DNA from: a virus
Lineage: Duplodnaviria > Heunggongvirae > Uroviricota > Caudoviricetes
DNA: 8,419 nucleotides
IMG/VR virus record: IMGVR_UViG_2671181188_000016
Reading direction: 5' to 3' (one strand)
In this document: piece after piece, positions 1 to 5,927 of the stretch
Layout of the letters: each line of letters starts with the position of its first letter
Numbering within the stretch: position 1 is the first letter of the stretch
Notes under the pieces: model-generated
Told to the model about the DNA's origin: nothing
Databases searched by the model: none
Seen by the model: only the letters and a program-made list of their open reading frames with translations
Position numbers and translations under genes: made by a program

Positions 1-1224
1 ATGAGCAGGGCAATTCATAGACTTAGCGACACTCTTTTACGAAAATTAAGCGGATCACCAACCACAAAAAGCACCTTTTTTAATGATGGTGGCAACCTTA
101 GCGTAAGGCATTCAACCAATGGCCTGTTAACCTGGTATTTCACTTACAGGTCCGGAACTGGTAGGCAGATATCACCTGAACGTCTGAGGCTGGGAAATTA
201 TCCAGATTTGAGCCTGAAAGCAGCCAGGGAAAAAGCGTCGCAATGTCGCGCATGGCTGGCTGAGGGGAAAAATCCGCGCTATGAACTTAATCATGCTGTA
301 CAGGACGCGTTAGCCCCCGTGACGGTTAAGGAAGCGCTCACTTACTGGCTTGAATCGTACGCAAAGGAAAAGCGCACTGACTACGAATCACTGAAAAGCC
401 GGATCAATAAACACATAATTAGCCAGATTGGAGCTATGCCACTGGAAAAATGCGAGCTACGCCACTGGCTGGCCTGTTTTGACCAGCTTGCTAAGCGTAA
501 TCCGGTATCAGCCGGATTTTTGCTACAGGTATGCAAACAGGCGCTTAAGTACTGCCGAAAACGACGATACGCAATCAGCAACGTTCTTGATGATATGGTT
601 GTCGGTGATGTTGGGAAAAAAGCAGAAATAAGCGAGCGCGTACTAACAAACAAGGAGCTTGGGGAATTACTACGCGCCCTTGATGAAAAAATTTACCCAC
701 CGTACTACAGCGCCCTGATTCGCCTCCTGATTGTCTTCGGATGTCGTACCACTGAGCTAAGACGCTCTGAGGTCCAGGAATGGGATTTTAAAGAAATGCT
801 CTGGACCGTGCCGAAAGAACACAGCAAAACGAAGGTAGCAATATTCAGGCCAATACCGGAAGCGATCTTGCCGTTTGTCATGAAGCTGGTGGAGCAGAAC
901 AGGCACACGGGCTTATTGCTCGGAGAACTGAAAGGGCAATCATCCGTATCAGAGTACGGAAGAACGGCACACAGACGCATTAATCAAGCCCCCTGGACGT
1001 TGCACGACATCCGGCACACGTTTACAACGATGCTGAACGATTTAGGCGTGGAACCGCATGTTGTGGAGCAGCTTACCGCGCACCAGTTGCCAGGAATGCA
1101 ACGAGTCTATAATCACTCCCGTTATCTTGATGCAAAACGTGACGCTCTTAATCTATGGGTTGAGCGCCTCGATGTGCTGGCTGGAAATCATGAAAATATT
1201 GTTATGCTGAAGGTGGCCAAATGA
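1..1224 (+). CDS. int: Tyrosine site-specific integrase (P4-type phage integrase family), 407 aa; window starts at its ATG
   Basis: Long ORF from track. C-terminal catalytic-domain motifs typical of tyrosine recombinases: conserved Arg in LIVFGCRTTELRR, HDIRHTF (His-x-x-Arg box), and AHQLPGMQRVYNHSRY with the presumptive nucleophile Tyr. Stop TGA 1222-1224. Internal ORFs on both strands are shadows. Confidence 0.9.
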   Translation: MSRAIHRLSDTLLRKLSGSPTTKSTFFNDGGNLSVRHSTNGLLTWYFTYRSGTGRQISPERLRLGNYPDLSLKAAREKASQCRAWLAEGKNPRYELNHAVQDALAPVTVKEALTYWLESYAKEKRTDYESLKSRINKHIISQIGAMPLEKCELRHWLACFDQLAKRNPVSAGFLLQVCKQALKYCRKRRYAISNVLDDMVVGDVGKKAEISERVLTNKELGELLRALDEKIYPPYYSALIRLLIVFGCRTTELRRSEVQEWDFKEMLWTVPKEHSKTKVAIFRPIPEAILPFVMKLVEQNRHTGLLLGELKGQSSVSEYGRTAHRRINQAPWTLHDIRHTFTTMLNDLGVEPHVVEQLTAHQLPGMQRVYNHSRYLDAKRDALNLWVERLDVLAGNHENIVMLKVAK

Positions 1225-1994
1225 AATTACCTAAAAGACTCTATTATCCGTTACCTGAAGCGGCAGAAAAGTTAGGCTGTGCAATAAAAGATCTTTATCA
1301 TTACGCATATATAGGTGCTCTTAATATTTCTGTATATATACCAAAAATTGATGCTAAAAAATTCAATTTTTCATTATGTCATTTTATCAATGGTTGTAAT
1401 GAGGAAGAATTAATAAAATATCCTTTCAATGATGAATCTGCTGTTTTTGGAAGTAATTTTACAGTTGGTTTAACTGGTGACACTGAATTTTTAGATAGTG
1501 CCATTATTGGTCCTGTAGGGAATTCTATCAAATGTTATTATGTTAGCAGCTTATCAGGGTTTTATTATACTCCGGCATATGTTTTTGCTGATGTCGAATT
1601 TAGCATGAGACAATATATAAAATGTTCTCATCTTACGAATAAGTATGGTGATGATAATCTCATGTATGTTTTTTGTAAGGGTGGTTATGAATTTGATGTT
1701 AACTATTTGTGTGTGATGGCTAGTGATTTAGATAATATAAAAAATACGGGAGACTTCCCGAAGATAACAGAAGATAGCCCAAAAGCATCGTCAAAAAGGA
1801 ATGAGGTTATTTACTCTTTAATTAAACTTATTCCAGAAATGGGTGATGTAGACCTGGACACGGAATCATTACCTAAAATAGCAGATTTAATTGATTCTAT
1901 AGCTGCATCCAGAGGGATAGAATTTCCAAAAACACATTGGCAGACATGGCAAAAGTATTTGGGGCGTGAATCTCAACAAAAACGTAAAAAGTGA
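1221..1994 (+). CDS. Hypothetical 257-aa protein; AT-rich cargo gene start-overlapping int; N-terminus resembles an excisionase/AlpA-like HTH; C-terminal ~200 aa unrecognised
   Basis: ATG at 1221 overlaps the int stop (ATGA); SD-like AAGGTGG about 6 nt upstream. A 257-codon uninterrupted ORF in strongly AT-rich DNA (by eye about one third G+C versus about half in flanking genes) is unlikely by chance. N-terminal LYYPLPEAAEKLGCAIKDLYHYAYIG looks HTH-like. No Walker, nuclease or other catalytic motif recognised. Confidence 0.7.
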   Translation: MKLPKRLYYPLPEAAEKLGCAIKDLYHYAYIGALNISVYIPKIDAKKFNFSLCHFINGCNEEELIKYPFNDESAVFGSNFTVGLTGDTEFLDSAIIGPVGNSIKCYYVSSLSGFYYTPAYVFADVEFSMRQYIKCSHLTNKYGDDNLMYVFCKGGYEFDVNYLCVMASDLDNIKNTGDFPKITEDSPKASSKRNEVIYSLIKLIPEMGDVDLDTESLPKIADLIDSIAASRGIEFPKTHWQTWQKYLGRESQQKRKK

Positions 1995-2023
1995 TATCAC
2001 GTGCTGGTAGTGTGATATCACAC
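1991..2023. promoter_or_regulatory. Tandem palindromic operator-like sites: GTGATATCAC (1991-2000) and GTGTGATATCACAC (2010-2023), centres 21 bp apart
   Basis: Two perfect palindromes read directly from the sequence, spaced two helical turns apart, between the stop of the cargo ORF (which the first palindrome overlaps) and the alpA start. Candidate -10 TAGAAT at 2045-2050 downstream. Confidence 0.45.
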
Positions 2024-2050
2024 AAACGGCGTTTTACTACCGCCTAGAAT

Positions 2051-2085
2051 CGTCCTCGTTCGGCAACGTTCGAGGACGTTTTTTT
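2051..2085 (+). terminator. Intrinsic terminator / attenuator hairpin immediately abutting the alpA ATG
   Basis: Stem CGTCCTCG (2051-2058) pairs with CGAGGACG (2071-2078), 12-nt loop, followed by a run of 7 T (2079-2085). The alpA ATG is at 2086, with no SD between. Confidence 0.6.
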
Positions 2086-2310
2086 ATGAATCAAAATACA
2101 CAATTTCAATCACTATCAGATCGCGTAATCCGTGAGGATGAATGCCGTAAGTTAACAGGAGTGTGCCGCACTACACGCTACGAACTGGAGAAAAAAGGGA
2201 ATTTCCCGTCACGCCGTAATCTGGGTGGTCGTTCAGTAGGTTGGCTGCTTTCCGAGGTTATGGAATGGGTTAAAAGCCGGGATCGTATTAATTCAGGTAA
2301 GGCAGCGTAG
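2086..2310 (+). CDS. alpA: AlpA-family (prophage CP4-57-type) transcriptional regulator / excisionase-like HTH protein, 74 aa
   Basis: Sequence RKLTGVCRTTRYELEKKGNFPSRRNLGGRSVGWLLSEVMEWVKSR matches the AlpA signature (HTH followed by FP...LG.RSVGW..E..EW). Position downstream of int is typical of satellites and cryptic prophages. Confidence 0.85.
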   Translation: MNQNTQFQSLSDRVIREDECRKLTGVCRTTRYELEKKGNFPSRRNLGGRSVGWLLSEVMEWVKSRDRINSGKAA

Positions 2311-3633: not shown

Positions 3634-3933
3634 ATGAAACTTAAATATTCTGGCTTAACTGCCAGCGGCAAAACTCGCACTAAATTCATGTGCGGGGATA
3701 TTTACCGCGATAAGTACGGCGGCACGGTAATGATTAAGGGCGTGGAGGAACGGCGCGTAACTTACCGCCGTGAAGGCTACGAATATGATTGCGTTATGCC
3801 TGTTTATCAGTTCAACCGTGATTTTTCTCTGGTACAGGCAGCGCCCCGCAGTAAGCCAACCAGCAGGGAGAAAGCACGCGCCAATATTCAGGAAATAAAA
3901 AAGATGCTTAACGTATTCAGGGGTAAAAAATGA
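3634..3933 (+). CDS. Hypothetical 99-aa basic protein immediately upstream of, and stop-start overlapping, the replication gene
   Basis: ATG 3634 with GGAGA about 9 nt upstream; stop TGA 3931-3933 overlaps the ATG 3930 of the next gene (ATGA). Lys/Arg/Tyr-rich. Its position before the primase gene is where P4 carries epsilon, but no sequence identity is claimed. Confidence 0.6.
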   Translation: MKLKYSGLTASGKTRTKFMCGDIYRDKYGGTVMIKGVEERRVTYRREGYEYDCVMPVYQFNRDFSLVQAAPRSKPTSREKARANIQEIKKMLNVFRGKK

Positions 3934-5684
3934 AACTGGCACCGAACGTAAAAAAACAGCCACGCGGAATAAAACACAAAGACACAGAGGTGATTATTTT
4001 CGCGGGTAGTGATGCGTGGGCACATGCAAAACAGTGGCAGGAGCAGGACGGCCCCGCATCCGGCGATAATGTGCCTCCTGTGTGGCTTGGGCCAAATCAG
4101 CTTGCCGAACTTTATGCACTGCAAATTGTTCCTGATGGAAAAAAACGCGTAAGGCTGTACCAGGCAGGAGAACTGGACTTGGTGGAGACCAAAAAGATTG
4201 GTCAGAAGCTGGCGGCGGCAGGTGTACAGGATGCAAATTTTTACCCCGAAGGAATGCACGTTCAGAAGGTGGAGAACTGGCGCGAATATCTTGCCCGTGA
4301 GCGCCAGAATCTTTCTGATGGTCTGGTCGTTGAGCTTCCGGTAAAGCAAAAGGCGCAACTTTCACAGATGGCGGACAGTGAGCGCGCGCAGATGCTTGCT
4401 GGTCGATTTGATGGCGTTTGCGTACATCCTGAAAGTGAAATCGTTCACGTATGGCGCGGCGGGGTATGGTGTCCGGTCAGCACAATGGAACTTAGCCGCG
4501 AAATGGTGGCGATCTATTCAGAGCACAGGGCCACTTTCAGCAAGCGCGTAATCAATAACGCCGTTGAAGCGTTAAAAGTTATTGCCGAACCAATGGGGGA
4601 GCCGTCCGGCGATTTGCTGCCGTTCGCCAATGGTGCGCTTGACCTGAAAACGGGGGAATTTTCCCCGCACACGCCGGAGAACTGGATCACCACGCACAAC
4701 GGCATTGAGTACACGCCACCAGCACCTGGGGAGAACATCCGCGACAACGCGCCAAACTTTCACAAATGGCTTGATCACGCAGCCGGAAAAGACCCGCGCA
4801 AGATGATGCGTATATGTGCCGCGCTGTACATGATTATGGCGAACCGGTACGACTGGCAGATGTTTATTGAGGCCACCGGAGACGGCGGTAGCGGTAAAAG
4901 TACATTCACACACATAGCCAGCCTTCTGGCAGGGAAACAGAACACCGTAAGCGCGGAGATGACATCACTCGATGATGCAGGAGGGCGCGCGCAGGTTGTC
5001 GGGAGTCGTCTTATCGTCCTGGCTGACCAGCCGAAATATACAGGCGAAGGAACGGGCATCAAGAAAATCACGGGCGGCGACCCCGTGGAAATTAACCCGA
5101 AATATGAAAAGCGTTTCACGGCGGTAATCAGGGCGGTGGTGCTGGCGACCAACAACAACCCGATGATATTCACCGAACGGGCCGGAGGCGTGGCACGTCG
5201 TCGGGTTATTTTTCGCTTTGACAATATCGTTAGCGAGGCAGAAAAGGACAAGGATTTGCCGGAGAAGGTCGCGGCTGAAATCCCTGTGATTATCCGCCGC
5301 TTGCTGGCTAATTTTGCTGACCCTGAAAAGGCACGGGCTTTATTACTGGAACAGCGCGACGGTGATGAAGCACTGGCGATAAAGCAACAGACAGATCCGG
5401 TTATTGAGTTTTGCCAGTTCCTGAATTTTCTGGAGGAAGCGCGCGGCCTGATGATGGGTGGCGGTGGCGATTCCGTGAAGTACACGACCAGAAACAGCCT
5501 TTACCGCGTCTATCTGGCGTTTATGGCATACGCAGGAAGAAGCAAGCCGCTAAACGTGGCTGATTTCAGCAAGGCCATGAAGCCAGCGGCGAAAGTTTAC
5601 GGACATGAATATATTACGCGAAAAGTTAAGGGAGTAACGCAGACCAACGCAATTACAACTGATGATTGCGACGCGTTTTTATAA
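3930..5684 (+). CDS. Replication initiator: primase/helicase-type protein with P-loop NTPase domain (P4 alpha / D5-like, SF3 helicase class), 584 aa
   Basis: Walker A motif ATGDGGSGKST and a downstream hydrophobic stretch ending in Asp (RLIVLAD, Walker B-like) read from the translation. Size and position (followed by an iteron array) match satellite pri-rep genes. The numerous minus-strand ORFs inside it are shadows. Confidence 0.85.
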   Translation: MKLAPNVKKQPRGIKHKDTEVIIFAGSDAWAHAKQWQEQDGPASGDNVPPVWLGPNQLAELYALQIVPDGKKRVRLYQAGELDLVETKKIGQKLAAAGVQDANFYPEGMHVQKVENWREYLARERQNLSDGLVVELPVKQKAQLSQMADSERAQMLAGRFDGVCVHPESEIVHVWRGGVWCPVSTMELSREMVAIYSEHRATFSKRVINNAVEALKVIAEPMGEPSGDLLPFANGALDLKTGEFSPHTPENWITTHNGIEYTPPAPGENIRDNAPNFHKWLDHAAGKDPRKMMRICAALYMIMANRYDWQMFIEATGDGGSGKSTFTHIASLLAGKQNTVSAEMTSLDDAGGRAQVVGSRLIVLADQPKYTGEGTGIKKITGGDPVEINPKYEKRFTAVIRAVVLATNNNPMIFTERAGGVARRRVIFRFDNIVSEAEKDKDLPEKVAAEIPVIIRRLLANFADPEKARALLLEQRDGDEALAIKQQTDPVIEFCQFLNFLEEARGLMMGGGGDSVKYTTRNSLYRVYLAFMAYAGRSKPLNVADFSKAMKPAAKVYGHEYITRKVKGVTQTNAITTDDCDAFL

Positions 5685-5692
5685 TTTTAGAC

Positions 5693-5927
5693 AAAAGCCC
5701 TCTACCTCTTCTACCCGAATGAAATAAACGCATATTATTCAATATGATAAGTGGGTAGAGGGGCAGGTAGAAGGCAAATAAAAGCCCTCTACCCCCTCCA
5801 CCTTGATTAAGGTCGTTTGTGAGGGGCGGGTAGAGGATGGGTAGAGGGCCACGAAAAGCCCTCTACCCATCTGAAAGCCGCGCCATTACTGACCTGAAAG
5901 ATGATTAGGTAGAAGAGGTAGAGGAGG
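5693..5927. repeat. Candidate replication origin: iteron array of GCCCTCTACC-type repeats in both orientations around an AT-rich segment
   Basis: Direct copies AAAAGCCCTCTACC at 5693-5706, 5780-5793 and 5854-5867. Inverted copies (GGTAGAGGG...) at 5754-5764, 5829-5838, 5839-5850, plus degenerate GGTAGAAG/GGTAGAGGAGG at 5908-5927. AT-rich stretch 5718-5750 between the first convergent pair. Lies directly 3' of the primase/helicase gene. Confidence 0.65.

Follow-up and report, generated by a model that had tools for sequence, protein, structure and literature searches.

Known alpA control systems and the alpA leader of an Escherichia coli satellite

In the phage-inducible chromosomal islands (PICIs) of Gram-negative bacteria, AlpA is the master activator and the excision regulator (PMC6092414), and alpA has its own helper-induced, autoactivated promoter, for which the inducer was not identified (PMC6092414, PMC11773190). 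In EcCICFT073 and EcCIMP1, alpA is induced by helper phage and not by the SOS response, and it is needed for excision, replication, and transfer (PMC6092414; PMC11773190). In the Vibrio satellites called PICMI, a gene that overlaps int and precedes alpA, named iolg, is needed for excision in response to phage; expression of int and iolg is constitutive there, and that of alpA is phage induced (PMC10803314). In the literature on PICI alpA promoters, we found no cis elements and no account of the protein family described below. Here, we analyze the interval of about 100 bp in front of alpA in an 8.4-kb stretch of DNA (IMG/VR record IMGVR_UViG_2671181188_000016, called the window below; all positions refer to it), which is a Gram-negative PICI-type satellite of E. 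coli. As in EcCICFT073 and EcCIMP1 (Fillol-Salom 2018, PMC6092414; PMC11773190), alpA in the window lies downstream of int, in the same orientation, and appears to have a promoter region of its own.

We read this interval as the alpA control region of one enterobacterial PICI subfamily, in which insulation from upstream transcription would be combined with initiation regulated by a member of the ORF257 protein family, and our confidence in this reading, drawn from sequence comparison, is evenly balanced. Its parts are of known kinds and are assembled into a control module not described before, at the induction step of Gram-negative satellites. The genes and elements concerned are as follows.

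1 to 1224, plus strand: int, a tyrosine recombinase with a P4-type arm-binding domain (PF00589, PF13356), annotated as integrase in NZ_CP032795
1221 to 1994, plus strand: ORF257, the int-overlapping gene, a candidate regulator
1991 to 2000, no strand: predicted operator site 1, GTGATATCAC, which contains the ORF257 stop codon TGA (1992 to 1994)
2010 to 2023, no strand: predicted operator site 2, with the core GTGATATCAC (2012 to 2021) extended to GTGTGATATCACAC
2045 to 2050, plus strand: −10-like hexamer TAGAAT, with five of six matches to TATAAT
2051 to 2078, plus strand: leader hairpin with arms CGTCCTCG (2051 to 2058) and CGAGGACG (2071 to 2078), an 8-bp stem, and a 12-nt loop
2057 to 2059, plus strand: predicted alpA transcription start, placed by geometry 7 to 9 nt past the hexamer, at the end of the hairpin 5′ arm
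2072 to 2076, plus strand: Shine-Dalgarno (SD)-like GAGGA within the hairpin 3′ arm, 9 nt 5′ of the ATG
2079 to 2085, plus strand: run of seven T (T7) abutting the alpA ATG
2086 to 2310, plus strand: alpA (PF05930, E = 3e-16)

The stop codon of int and the start codon of ORF257 overlap as ATGA (1221 to 1224), and a 4-nt overlap is also present in most homologous loci. Because of this overlap, int and ORF257 would form one translationally coupled unit reading toward alpA. In the proposed mechanism, transcripts arriving from this unit would carry the complete hairpin, which buries GAGGA, and the U7 that follows the hairpin would also end transcription. Since alpA triggers excision and runaway replication, the hairpin would serve to keep the gene silent. 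For regulated initiation, TAGAAT would act as the −10 element of a promoter without a −35 element, and RNA polymerase would start at about 2057 to 2059, at the end of the 5′ arm, giving RNAs that are unable to form the hairpin and leave the SD free. The promoter would depend on a dimeric DNA-binding protein at operators near −41 and −62, which share one face of the helix. The likeliest candidate for this role is the ORF257-family protein, probably acting through its conserved C-terminal helical domain, and a helper-phage signal may enter through its variable middle domain.

A preliminary description of this DNA had proposed a switch that insulates alpA from int transcription and places it under a dimeric DNA-binding factor. 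Comparison with related islands largely bears this model out, with three changes: the leader has an SD, which is sequestered; ORF257 is probably a regulator; and specificity appears to follow its C-terminal domain.

The leader hairpin and the predicted alpA start

The hairpin has six G-C pairs in its stem, two inner pairs and a GCAA tetraloop within its 12-nt loop, and a folding energy of −19 kcal/mol. The RNA from 1985 to 2110 folds at −37.9 kcal/mol (z = −4.9), and none of 200 shuffled sequences folded as well. For comparison, relatives were gathered in three ways that are independent of the motifs: by DNA similarity in E. coli genomes, by ORF257 protein homology, and by AlpA homology. A separate scan of genome contigs with AlpA gave four distant, nonenterobacterial loci, which were of no use for the comparison. 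In a 19-sequence alignment, 90% of the cells at hairpin positions were paired, compared to 33 to 50% when the partner column was slid, and 7 of 11 pairs had changed on both sides, a value reached by none of 500 shuffles. Changes on both sides were also found at 9 of 12 pairs in a wider ungapped set, where only such compensatory counts are informative because the sequences were chosen for having the stem.

These substitutions give 5′ arms of many kinds (CGTCCTCG, GCCCTCG, GCTCCTG, GCTCCCG, CCACCTG, ACCCTTG, and GCTCCTTAC), so that stems as unlike as CCACCTG/CAGGTGG and GCTCCTTAC/GTAAGGAGC occupy the same place, and variants with G.U pairs also occur (GCCCTTG/CGAGGGT and GCTCTCG/CGAGGGC). The recognition helix of AlpA is constant across these differing stems, which argues that the hairpin arms are not an AlpA site. 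No Rfam 15 covariance model matched within 1991 to 2090 at an E value of ≤1.

In every leader examined, the purine-rich arm is the 3′ arm. It holds an SD-like purine motif (GAGG, AGGA, GGAG, AGGT, or AGGG) in 28 of 37 leaders, and the other nine have CGAGAGC; in relatives, GAGG, AGGAG, AGGTGG, or AAGGAG in this arm lies 5 to 10 nt before the ATG, with AAGGAG at 5 nt in L188. The preliminary description had given alpA no SD and had ended the T run one base before the start codon. Both points need correction, as GAGGA lies inside the 3′ arm and the T7 run touches the ATG, which is the sole in-frame start codon possible for alpA in this island. The same description had suggested folding the leader from either start site; when this was done, the probability that GAGGA is unpaired was 0.00 in RNAs starting at 1960 to 2052 and 0.5 to 0.6 in RNAs starting at 2057 to 2062.

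At least four consecutive T residues follow the stem in 27 of the 37 distinct leaders (about 70%) and are absent in the remaining 10. In the window, a GC-rich stem-loop is followed directly by a U tract, and the hairpin and T7 together form a predicted canonical intrinsic terminator for read-through from int-ORF257. Given the share of leaders with a T run, the terminator is a feature of this island and not of the whole family. With an SD-like 3′ arm and a T run in about 70% of leaders, the conserved role would be the blocking of read-through, by SD sequestration and usually also by termination. The earlier proposal that the hairpin stops only read-through is upheld in part: the hairpin covaries, and folding spares transcripts that start about 7 nt past the hexamer, but SD sequestration, and not termination alone, appears to be the conserved function.

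This arrangement would work like the fold-back inhibition of IS10/Tn10 and IS50/Tn5, in which the inverted repeat of a read-through RNA sequesters the ribosome-binding site and the element's own promoter starts inside the repeat. In each case, the purpose would be to keep chance transcription from upstream away from a dangerous mobility gene. As in those elements, the inverted repeat in front of alpA pairs an SD-like motif in transcripts started upstream, as judged from folding and from the 37 leaders; the −10-like hexamer abutting the stem is the one feature that points to a start inside the repeat, which would leave the 5′ arm out of the RNA. The two systems differ in gene family and element type. 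In addition, the structure found here is usually also an intrinsic terminator, and its internal promoter, with a predicted start within the hairpin, appears to depend on a regulator with paired operators.

TAGAAT is present at 2045 to 2050, as first described, and a position-matched hexamer was found in all 37 leaders, with the consensus (A/T)AAAAT and with A, A, and T at its last three positions in 32, 30, and 31 of the 37, respectively. Its variants in relatives (TAGAAT, TACAAT in L101, CAGAAT, CAAAAT, CAATAT, TTAAAT, and AATAAT) are −10-like in all lineages, including L094, which keeps such a hexamer though its downstream tail is unable to pair with it. The base 7 nt after the hexamer, the last of the 5′ arm, is G in all 37 leaders, with AA or TT directly after it. 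A −35 hexamer is absent 16 to 18 bp upstream, where ACAAAC, CAAACG, and CACAAA match TTGACA at two, zero, and one of six positions, and no conserved −35 was found in any relative lineage compared. A generic consensus scan listed neither promoter nor hairpin in the interval, because the hairpin loop is longer than 8 nt and the −35 hexamer is missing. The missing −35 fits an activator-dependent promoter and not a canonical sigma-70 promoter.

For an assumed start at 2057 or 2058, site 2 is centered at −40.5 or −41.5 and site 1 at −61.5 or −62.5, respectively; in other lineages, site 2 is centered at −39.5 or −40.5. A similar layout is known from lambda cI at OR1/OR2-PRM and from class I/II CRP promoters, in which two dyad sites lie about two helical turns apart and the proximal one, near −41/−42, reaches into the −35 region, the promoter itself having a poor −35. 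The likeness is one of layout, as there is no sequence or protein relationship, the half-sites here are separated by N2 and not N6, and the lambda half-site TATCAC is arranged differently.

Two side observations concern this part of the leader. The 12-nt loop (within 2057 to 2071) is conserved as AAC-N6-GAA in related leaders and is the reverse complement (TTCGGCAACGTT) in this lineage, as if flipped. Flipping creates a direct repeat, CGWWC-N5-CGWWC, one helical turn apart and unique in the window, and the AA/AA or TT/TT flanking the loop never becomes a pairable AA/TT in the 37 related leaders; the loop motif might serve as a binding site for a protein at the predicted start, or as a motif in the RNA. 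In addition, relatives including L086, L089, L091, L084, L088, and L094 have an in-frame ATG 36 nt 5′ of the alpA ATG (MLSN..), built from the AAT of the hexamer and the first G of the stem, which could start a short upstream reading frame or extend AlpA at its N terminus, and translation from it would melt the hairpin. We rejected such a reading frame or extension of alpA as an account of the leader, as this ATG is absent in the window and in L092, is followed by a stop in L087, and the variation is compensatory and not synonymous.

The twin palindromes and their likely reader

The two palindromes were confirmed at 1991 to 2000 and 2012 to 2021, where they had been described, with centers (1995.5 and 2016.5) 21 bp apart. 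With up to one mismatch allowed, GTGATATCAC is expected 0.12 times per window and was observed twice, exact both times, which is beyond chance; no further copies were found elsewhere in the window or in the island with 8 kb of flanks. The 14-bp version of site 2 is limited to this lineage, the outer G being lost in L022/L083. A GTGAWWTCAC pair is present at every full-length ORF257 homologue locus examined, and this retention was seen in sites found through protein homology, not through the motif. The twin sites, their spacing, and the hairpin are kept in islands of E. coli, Salmonella, Klebsiella, and Providencia whose proteins are 30 to 40% identical.

The gap between the two sites is 11 nt, except that a Klebsiella lineage has 10 nt and Providencia 12 nt, and the end of site 2 lies 28 to 29 nt from the hairpin and 62 to 64 nt from the ATG in more than 12 lineages. 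The 22 to 23 nt between site 2 and the hexamer and hairpin cannot be aligned across lineages, and the distance is constant within 1 bp; such heavy substitution without insertions or deletions suggests selection on length. In L159/L178, whose hairpin loop has 7 additional nucleotides, the sites are displaced together with the hexamer and do not keep their distance to the ATG. Likewise, the sites hold their distance to the hexamer and hairpin but not to the stop codon, as they lie inside the reading frame in L179, L187, and L188 and after it elsewhere. The earlier view of the palindromes as an operator pair at promoter-type positions thus gains from this constancy, and also from an alternate class of sites at the same positions (see below).

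These data bear on the possibility that the interval has no regulatory role and holds an ordinary intrinsic terminator next to chance palindromes, with alpA driven from elsewhere. A hairpin with a T7 run after a gene is most commonly read in this way, and the consensus scan gave no promoter, but we consider this explanation very improbable, since only about 0.1 exact twin 10-mers are expected per window, the sites, spacing, and hairpin persist across islands of the genera listed above, and the 91 bp between the ORF257 stop codon and the alpA ATG leave no room for another promoter.

Two copies of a palindrome in direct repeat are necessarily inverted repeats as well, which allows the sites to pair as a 10-bp RNA stem, and the minimum-free-energy fold does pair 1991 to 2000 with 2012 to 2021. 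The palindromes might therefore act as RNA, the arms of the stem enclosing an 11-nt loop at the 3′ terminus of the int-ORF257 message (a stabilizer, a processing site, or an element coupled to translation termination), with the hairpin as the operon terminator. In keeping with this, site 1 overlaps the stop codon in many lineages, and the sites of L093/L173 (GTGAAATCAC and GTGATTTCAC, with AA versus TT at the center) and of L187 (GGAAATACCC and GAGTATTTCC) have remained complementary to each other while losing self-symmetry. However, site 2 of L094/L177 (GCGATATCGC) has a symmetric double change that keeps self-symmetry and abolishes complementarity between the sites, and pairing between the sites is also broken in a Klebsiella lineage in which site 1, GTGAATTCAC, has kept its self-symmetry and site 2 is half degenerate (GTGATATCCC or ..CTA). 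Furthermore, the sites of a second class (GGAA, below) are unequal in length, at 9 and 10 nt; the palindrome motif is conserved in sequence without free covariation, unlike the downstream hairpin; the sites follow the hexamer and hairpin and not the stop codon; and 10 of the 37 leaders lack four or more T residues after the hairpin. We judge an RNA role improbable. The variation is informative but mixed, and we read the twin sites as protein-recognized DNA with overall two-fold symmetry.

Several known sites were considered for the palindromes and rejected. Site 2 (TGTGA-TA-TCACA) has N2 spacing, compared to N6 in the CRP site TGTGA-N6-TCACA; the spacing is also unsuitable for LacI or lambda operators; and integrase arm sites are unlikely at about 2 kb from attL with no other copies. 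An attenuator was rejected because, by inspection, site 2 is not complementary to the 5′ arm of the hairpin. A literature search for GTGATATCAC returned cloning primers only.

The palindrome GTGATATCA(C/T) also occurs in arrays with an 11- to 12-bp period beside promoter-like sequences in unrelated phage contigs, namely the gut metagenome contigs L025 and L027-L081 (about 55 kb) and the high-GC contigs L054, L056, and L066-L068. A phmmer search detected no ORF257 homologue near the arrays in these contigs, where an unrelated or unrecognized family of phage regulators appears to read the same palindrome. In another unrelated contig (L035, 2165 to 2195), GTGATATCAC-N11-GTGATATCAC is followed by CGCTTTTTATTTTT, and the twin palindrome there is built like an intrinsic terminator.

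The AlphaFold2 (AF2) model of ORF257 (predicted local distance difference test score, 78) has an N-terminal winged helix of the Xis/AlpA/MerR type (about residues 8 to 40), a variable, beta-rich middle, and a conserved C-terminal helical domain (about residues 187 to 250). A structure search with this helical domain gave no significant match, and no family was found for ORF257 among Pfam, NCBIfam, PADLOC, PHROGs, and PDB sequences. Its homologues, all annotated as hypothetical, form 390 clusters at 50% identity, and the family is of modest size and is modular, with many clusters that match the N-terminal part, the N-terminal and middle parts, or the C-terminal part only. The preliminary description had named this upstream helix-turn-helix protein, as cargo, among the possible binding factors. 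The N-terminal winged helix agrees with the first part of that suggestion, but ORF257 is probably a regulator rather than cargo, and the operator type follows the C-terminal domain and not the N-terminal one.

The association with the C-terminal domain emerged from a second operator class, GGAAWTTCC/GGAAnTTTCC, found in the AlpA-centered sample at −92/−93 and −72 from the ATG, the same coordinates as those of the GTGA class. Where the operators are of the GGAA class, the int-overlapping protein of the island is related in its N-terminal domain and differs in its C-terminal domain (pattern ..IKALL..YG..G-I-x-L-P-S-G-K-T-I-x-x-W-L-K), the two C-terminal classes being weakly similar (hhalign E value of about 1e-3). 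Operator class and C-terminal class agree in about 21 of 21 lineages. These include four natural chimeras (L103, L179, L187, and L188), which join an ORF257-like N terminus and middle to a GGAA-class C terminus, and all four carry GGAA-class sites at −93 and −72, with the exceptions that site 2 of L103 is degenerate and the inner halves of both sites in L187 have diverged; L187 and L188 were chosen as a test of the prediction made for chimeras.

This pattern bears on whether the binder is a protein other than ORF257, such as AlpA acting on its own promoter, a helper-phage regulator, or a host factor, in which case the association with the C-terminal domain would reflect physical linkage. Activation of the alpA promoter by AlpA, as well as induction by helper phages, is known from EcCICFT073 and EcCIMP1 (PMC6092414, PMC11773190); the DNA coding for the C-terminal domain is no more than 200 bp from the operators; and the GTGATATCA arrays indicate that phage proteins reading the palindrome exist. 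We rejected AlpA as the binder, as near-identical AlpA proteins serve islands without the sites: the identity of AlpA is 92% in islands of the DUF6387 type and 97% where int and alpA have no gene between them. The alternative is further disfavored by the pairing of each operator class with one C-terminal class across deep divergence and four swaps, and by the sites being found nowhere else in the island and not being CRP sites. Taken as a whole, a binder other than ORF257 seems to us rather unlikely.

In L006-L009, where int is not separated from alpA by a gene, the spacer is 420 bp long and AT rich, the alpA 5′ end is different, and the twin palindromes and the GC hairpin are missing. The DUF6387-type islands (L004, L005, L117, L151, L156, L161, L180, and L185) keep the hexamer and hairpin and lack both operator classes, and some have other palindromes at other distances (CCTCTAGAGG, TCACCG-N3-CGGTGA, and ATCAGTG-N19-CACTGAT), so alpA control may be organized differently in them.

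By its ATGA overlap with int and its place between int and alpA, ORF257 is the positional equivalent of the essential iolg of PICMI (PMC10803314). The two are also alike in that iolg, too, comprises many unrelated or shuffled families; they differ in that the authors of that work propose a role in the excision complex and not in alpA transcription, and no operators or leader hairpin were described (PMC10803314). We favor activation over repression of alpA by the ORF257-family protein, given the missing −35, the geometry of −41 and −62, and the requirement of PICMI iolg for phage-induced excision in a system in which alpA is phage induced.

The same architecture could instead house a repressor, an ORF257-family protein seated on the alpA −35 region and removed when its middle domain binds a helper-phage protein, as Stl is in the Staphylococcus aureus pathogenicity islands (SaPIs). 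Among SaPIs, the targets of Stl-type sensors differ between islands. Stl is likewise a satellite-encoded DNA-binding protein whose variable sensing part couples induction to a specific helper phage, and the variable middle domain and modular shuffling of the ORF257 family resemble such sensors. In addition, site 2 ends where a −35 hexamer would begin, and ORF257 would be made constitutively with int through the ATGA overlap. In contrast to ORF257, which is co-oriented with int and combines an Xis-like winged helix with an unclassified helical domain, Stl is a divergently transcribed repressor of the cI helix-turn-helix type, and the geometry here suggests activation. Repression is also hard to square with the lack of a recognizable −35 in any lineage, which would leave the promoter weak even when derepressed, with site centers at about −41 and −62, which are classic activator positions, and with the deletion of iolg in PICMI, which abolishes excision and does not make it constitutive (PMC10803314), although iolg is likened to ORF257 by position only. 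On balance, we regard a repressor as unlikely.

Several points weigh against the combination of insulation with activation by the ORF257-family protein. Support for the model as a whole comes from comparison and folding. An activator that is made constitutively needs an extra signal. Since no more than about 200 bp separate the operators from the coding sequence of the C-terminal domain, coinheritance as one recombination block could mimic the covariation of the two. The complementarity kept between the sites in L093/L173 and L187, at the expense of self-symmetry, also fits an RNA stem or a symmetric tetramer. The hexamer doubles as a 5′ extension of the stem (A-rich on the 5′ side and U-rich on the 3′ side), with one case of compensatory change in this extension (AAAGT/ACTTT in L151), so that stem pairing partly explains its conservation. 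Finally, the distance of 8 to 10 nt from SD to ATG is rather long.

The island and its place in satellite biology

The window has the gene content and layout of a Gram-negative PICI: co-oriented int, alpA (PF05930), and pri, packaging genes, a size in the range of about 8 to 15 kb, and a fixed chromosomal site, as judged from Pfam matches and the locus. In E. coli ERL06-2503 (NZ_CP032795), the island is flanked by cspD/yljB and clpS, and in E. coli O157:H7 Sakai this site is empty and the island is absent; no transcriptome was found for a strain that carries it. The remaining genes are as follows.

Downstream of alpA, leftward: ylcI-like gene
Between the ylcI-like and D5/primase genes: icd-like gene
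3930 to 5684: D5/primase gene (pri)
After pri: terS, then a capsid-family gene

Several repeats were noted in this part of the window. A terminator-like hairpin on the minus strand (2337 to 2356, GGCGACC..GGTCGCC with a T-rich tail), 27 nt beyond the alpA stop codon, probably ends transcription of the leftward ylcI-like gene; antisense transcription would thereby be kept out of alpA, giving the gene insulation at either end. Where the leftward ylcI-like gene and the icd-like operon diverge, GTGGCTGACA is present as three exact direct repeats (at 2646, 2691, and 2716, within 2646 to 2725) that bracket a sigma-70-like promoter, TTGACG-17-TAGTAT (2686 to 2714). Being limited to this island and L104, these repeats look like operators of a local variable, immunity-like module, and we rejected them as a shared AlpA box on the ground that they are confined to this variable region. 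Just 3′ of the primase gene, 5693 to 5925 holds dense iterons (GGTAGAGG/CCTCTACC) in both orientations, at the position expected for a PICI replication origin. Repeats of AAAGTTAC with a period of about 12 nt, in both orientations, lie upstream of and inside terS (6798 to 6823 and 7000 to 7077) and may be a pac or TerS recognition array.

The switching on of alpA by helper phage is an open step, stated as such for PICIs (PMC6092414) and for PICMI (PMC10803314), and the region described here offers testable parts for it: an operator pair, a candidate cognate protein with swappable specificity, a predicted start, and a leader hairpin. The hairpin would explain how the gene for a lethal activator can lie directly downstream of a constitutively transcribed int operon. 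We tentatively suggest, while holding it as doubtful, that the ORF257 relatives are the missing sensors of helper phages, with an Xis-like N-terminal winged helix, a fast-evolving middle domain that recognizes a phage product, and a C terminus that reads the operators, the operator and C-terminal classes serving as interchangeable specificity cassettes, and that iolg genes act alike. Once a helper was sensed, such proteins would turn on the alpA promoter, which has no −35, and its RNAs would evade the fold-back hairpin. If the pairing of protein and operator is true, a gene called accessory or hypothetical would be reclassified as core regulatory machinery of these satellites, and the operator classes with their regulators would provide orthogonal pairs for engineering PICI-based delivery vehicles.

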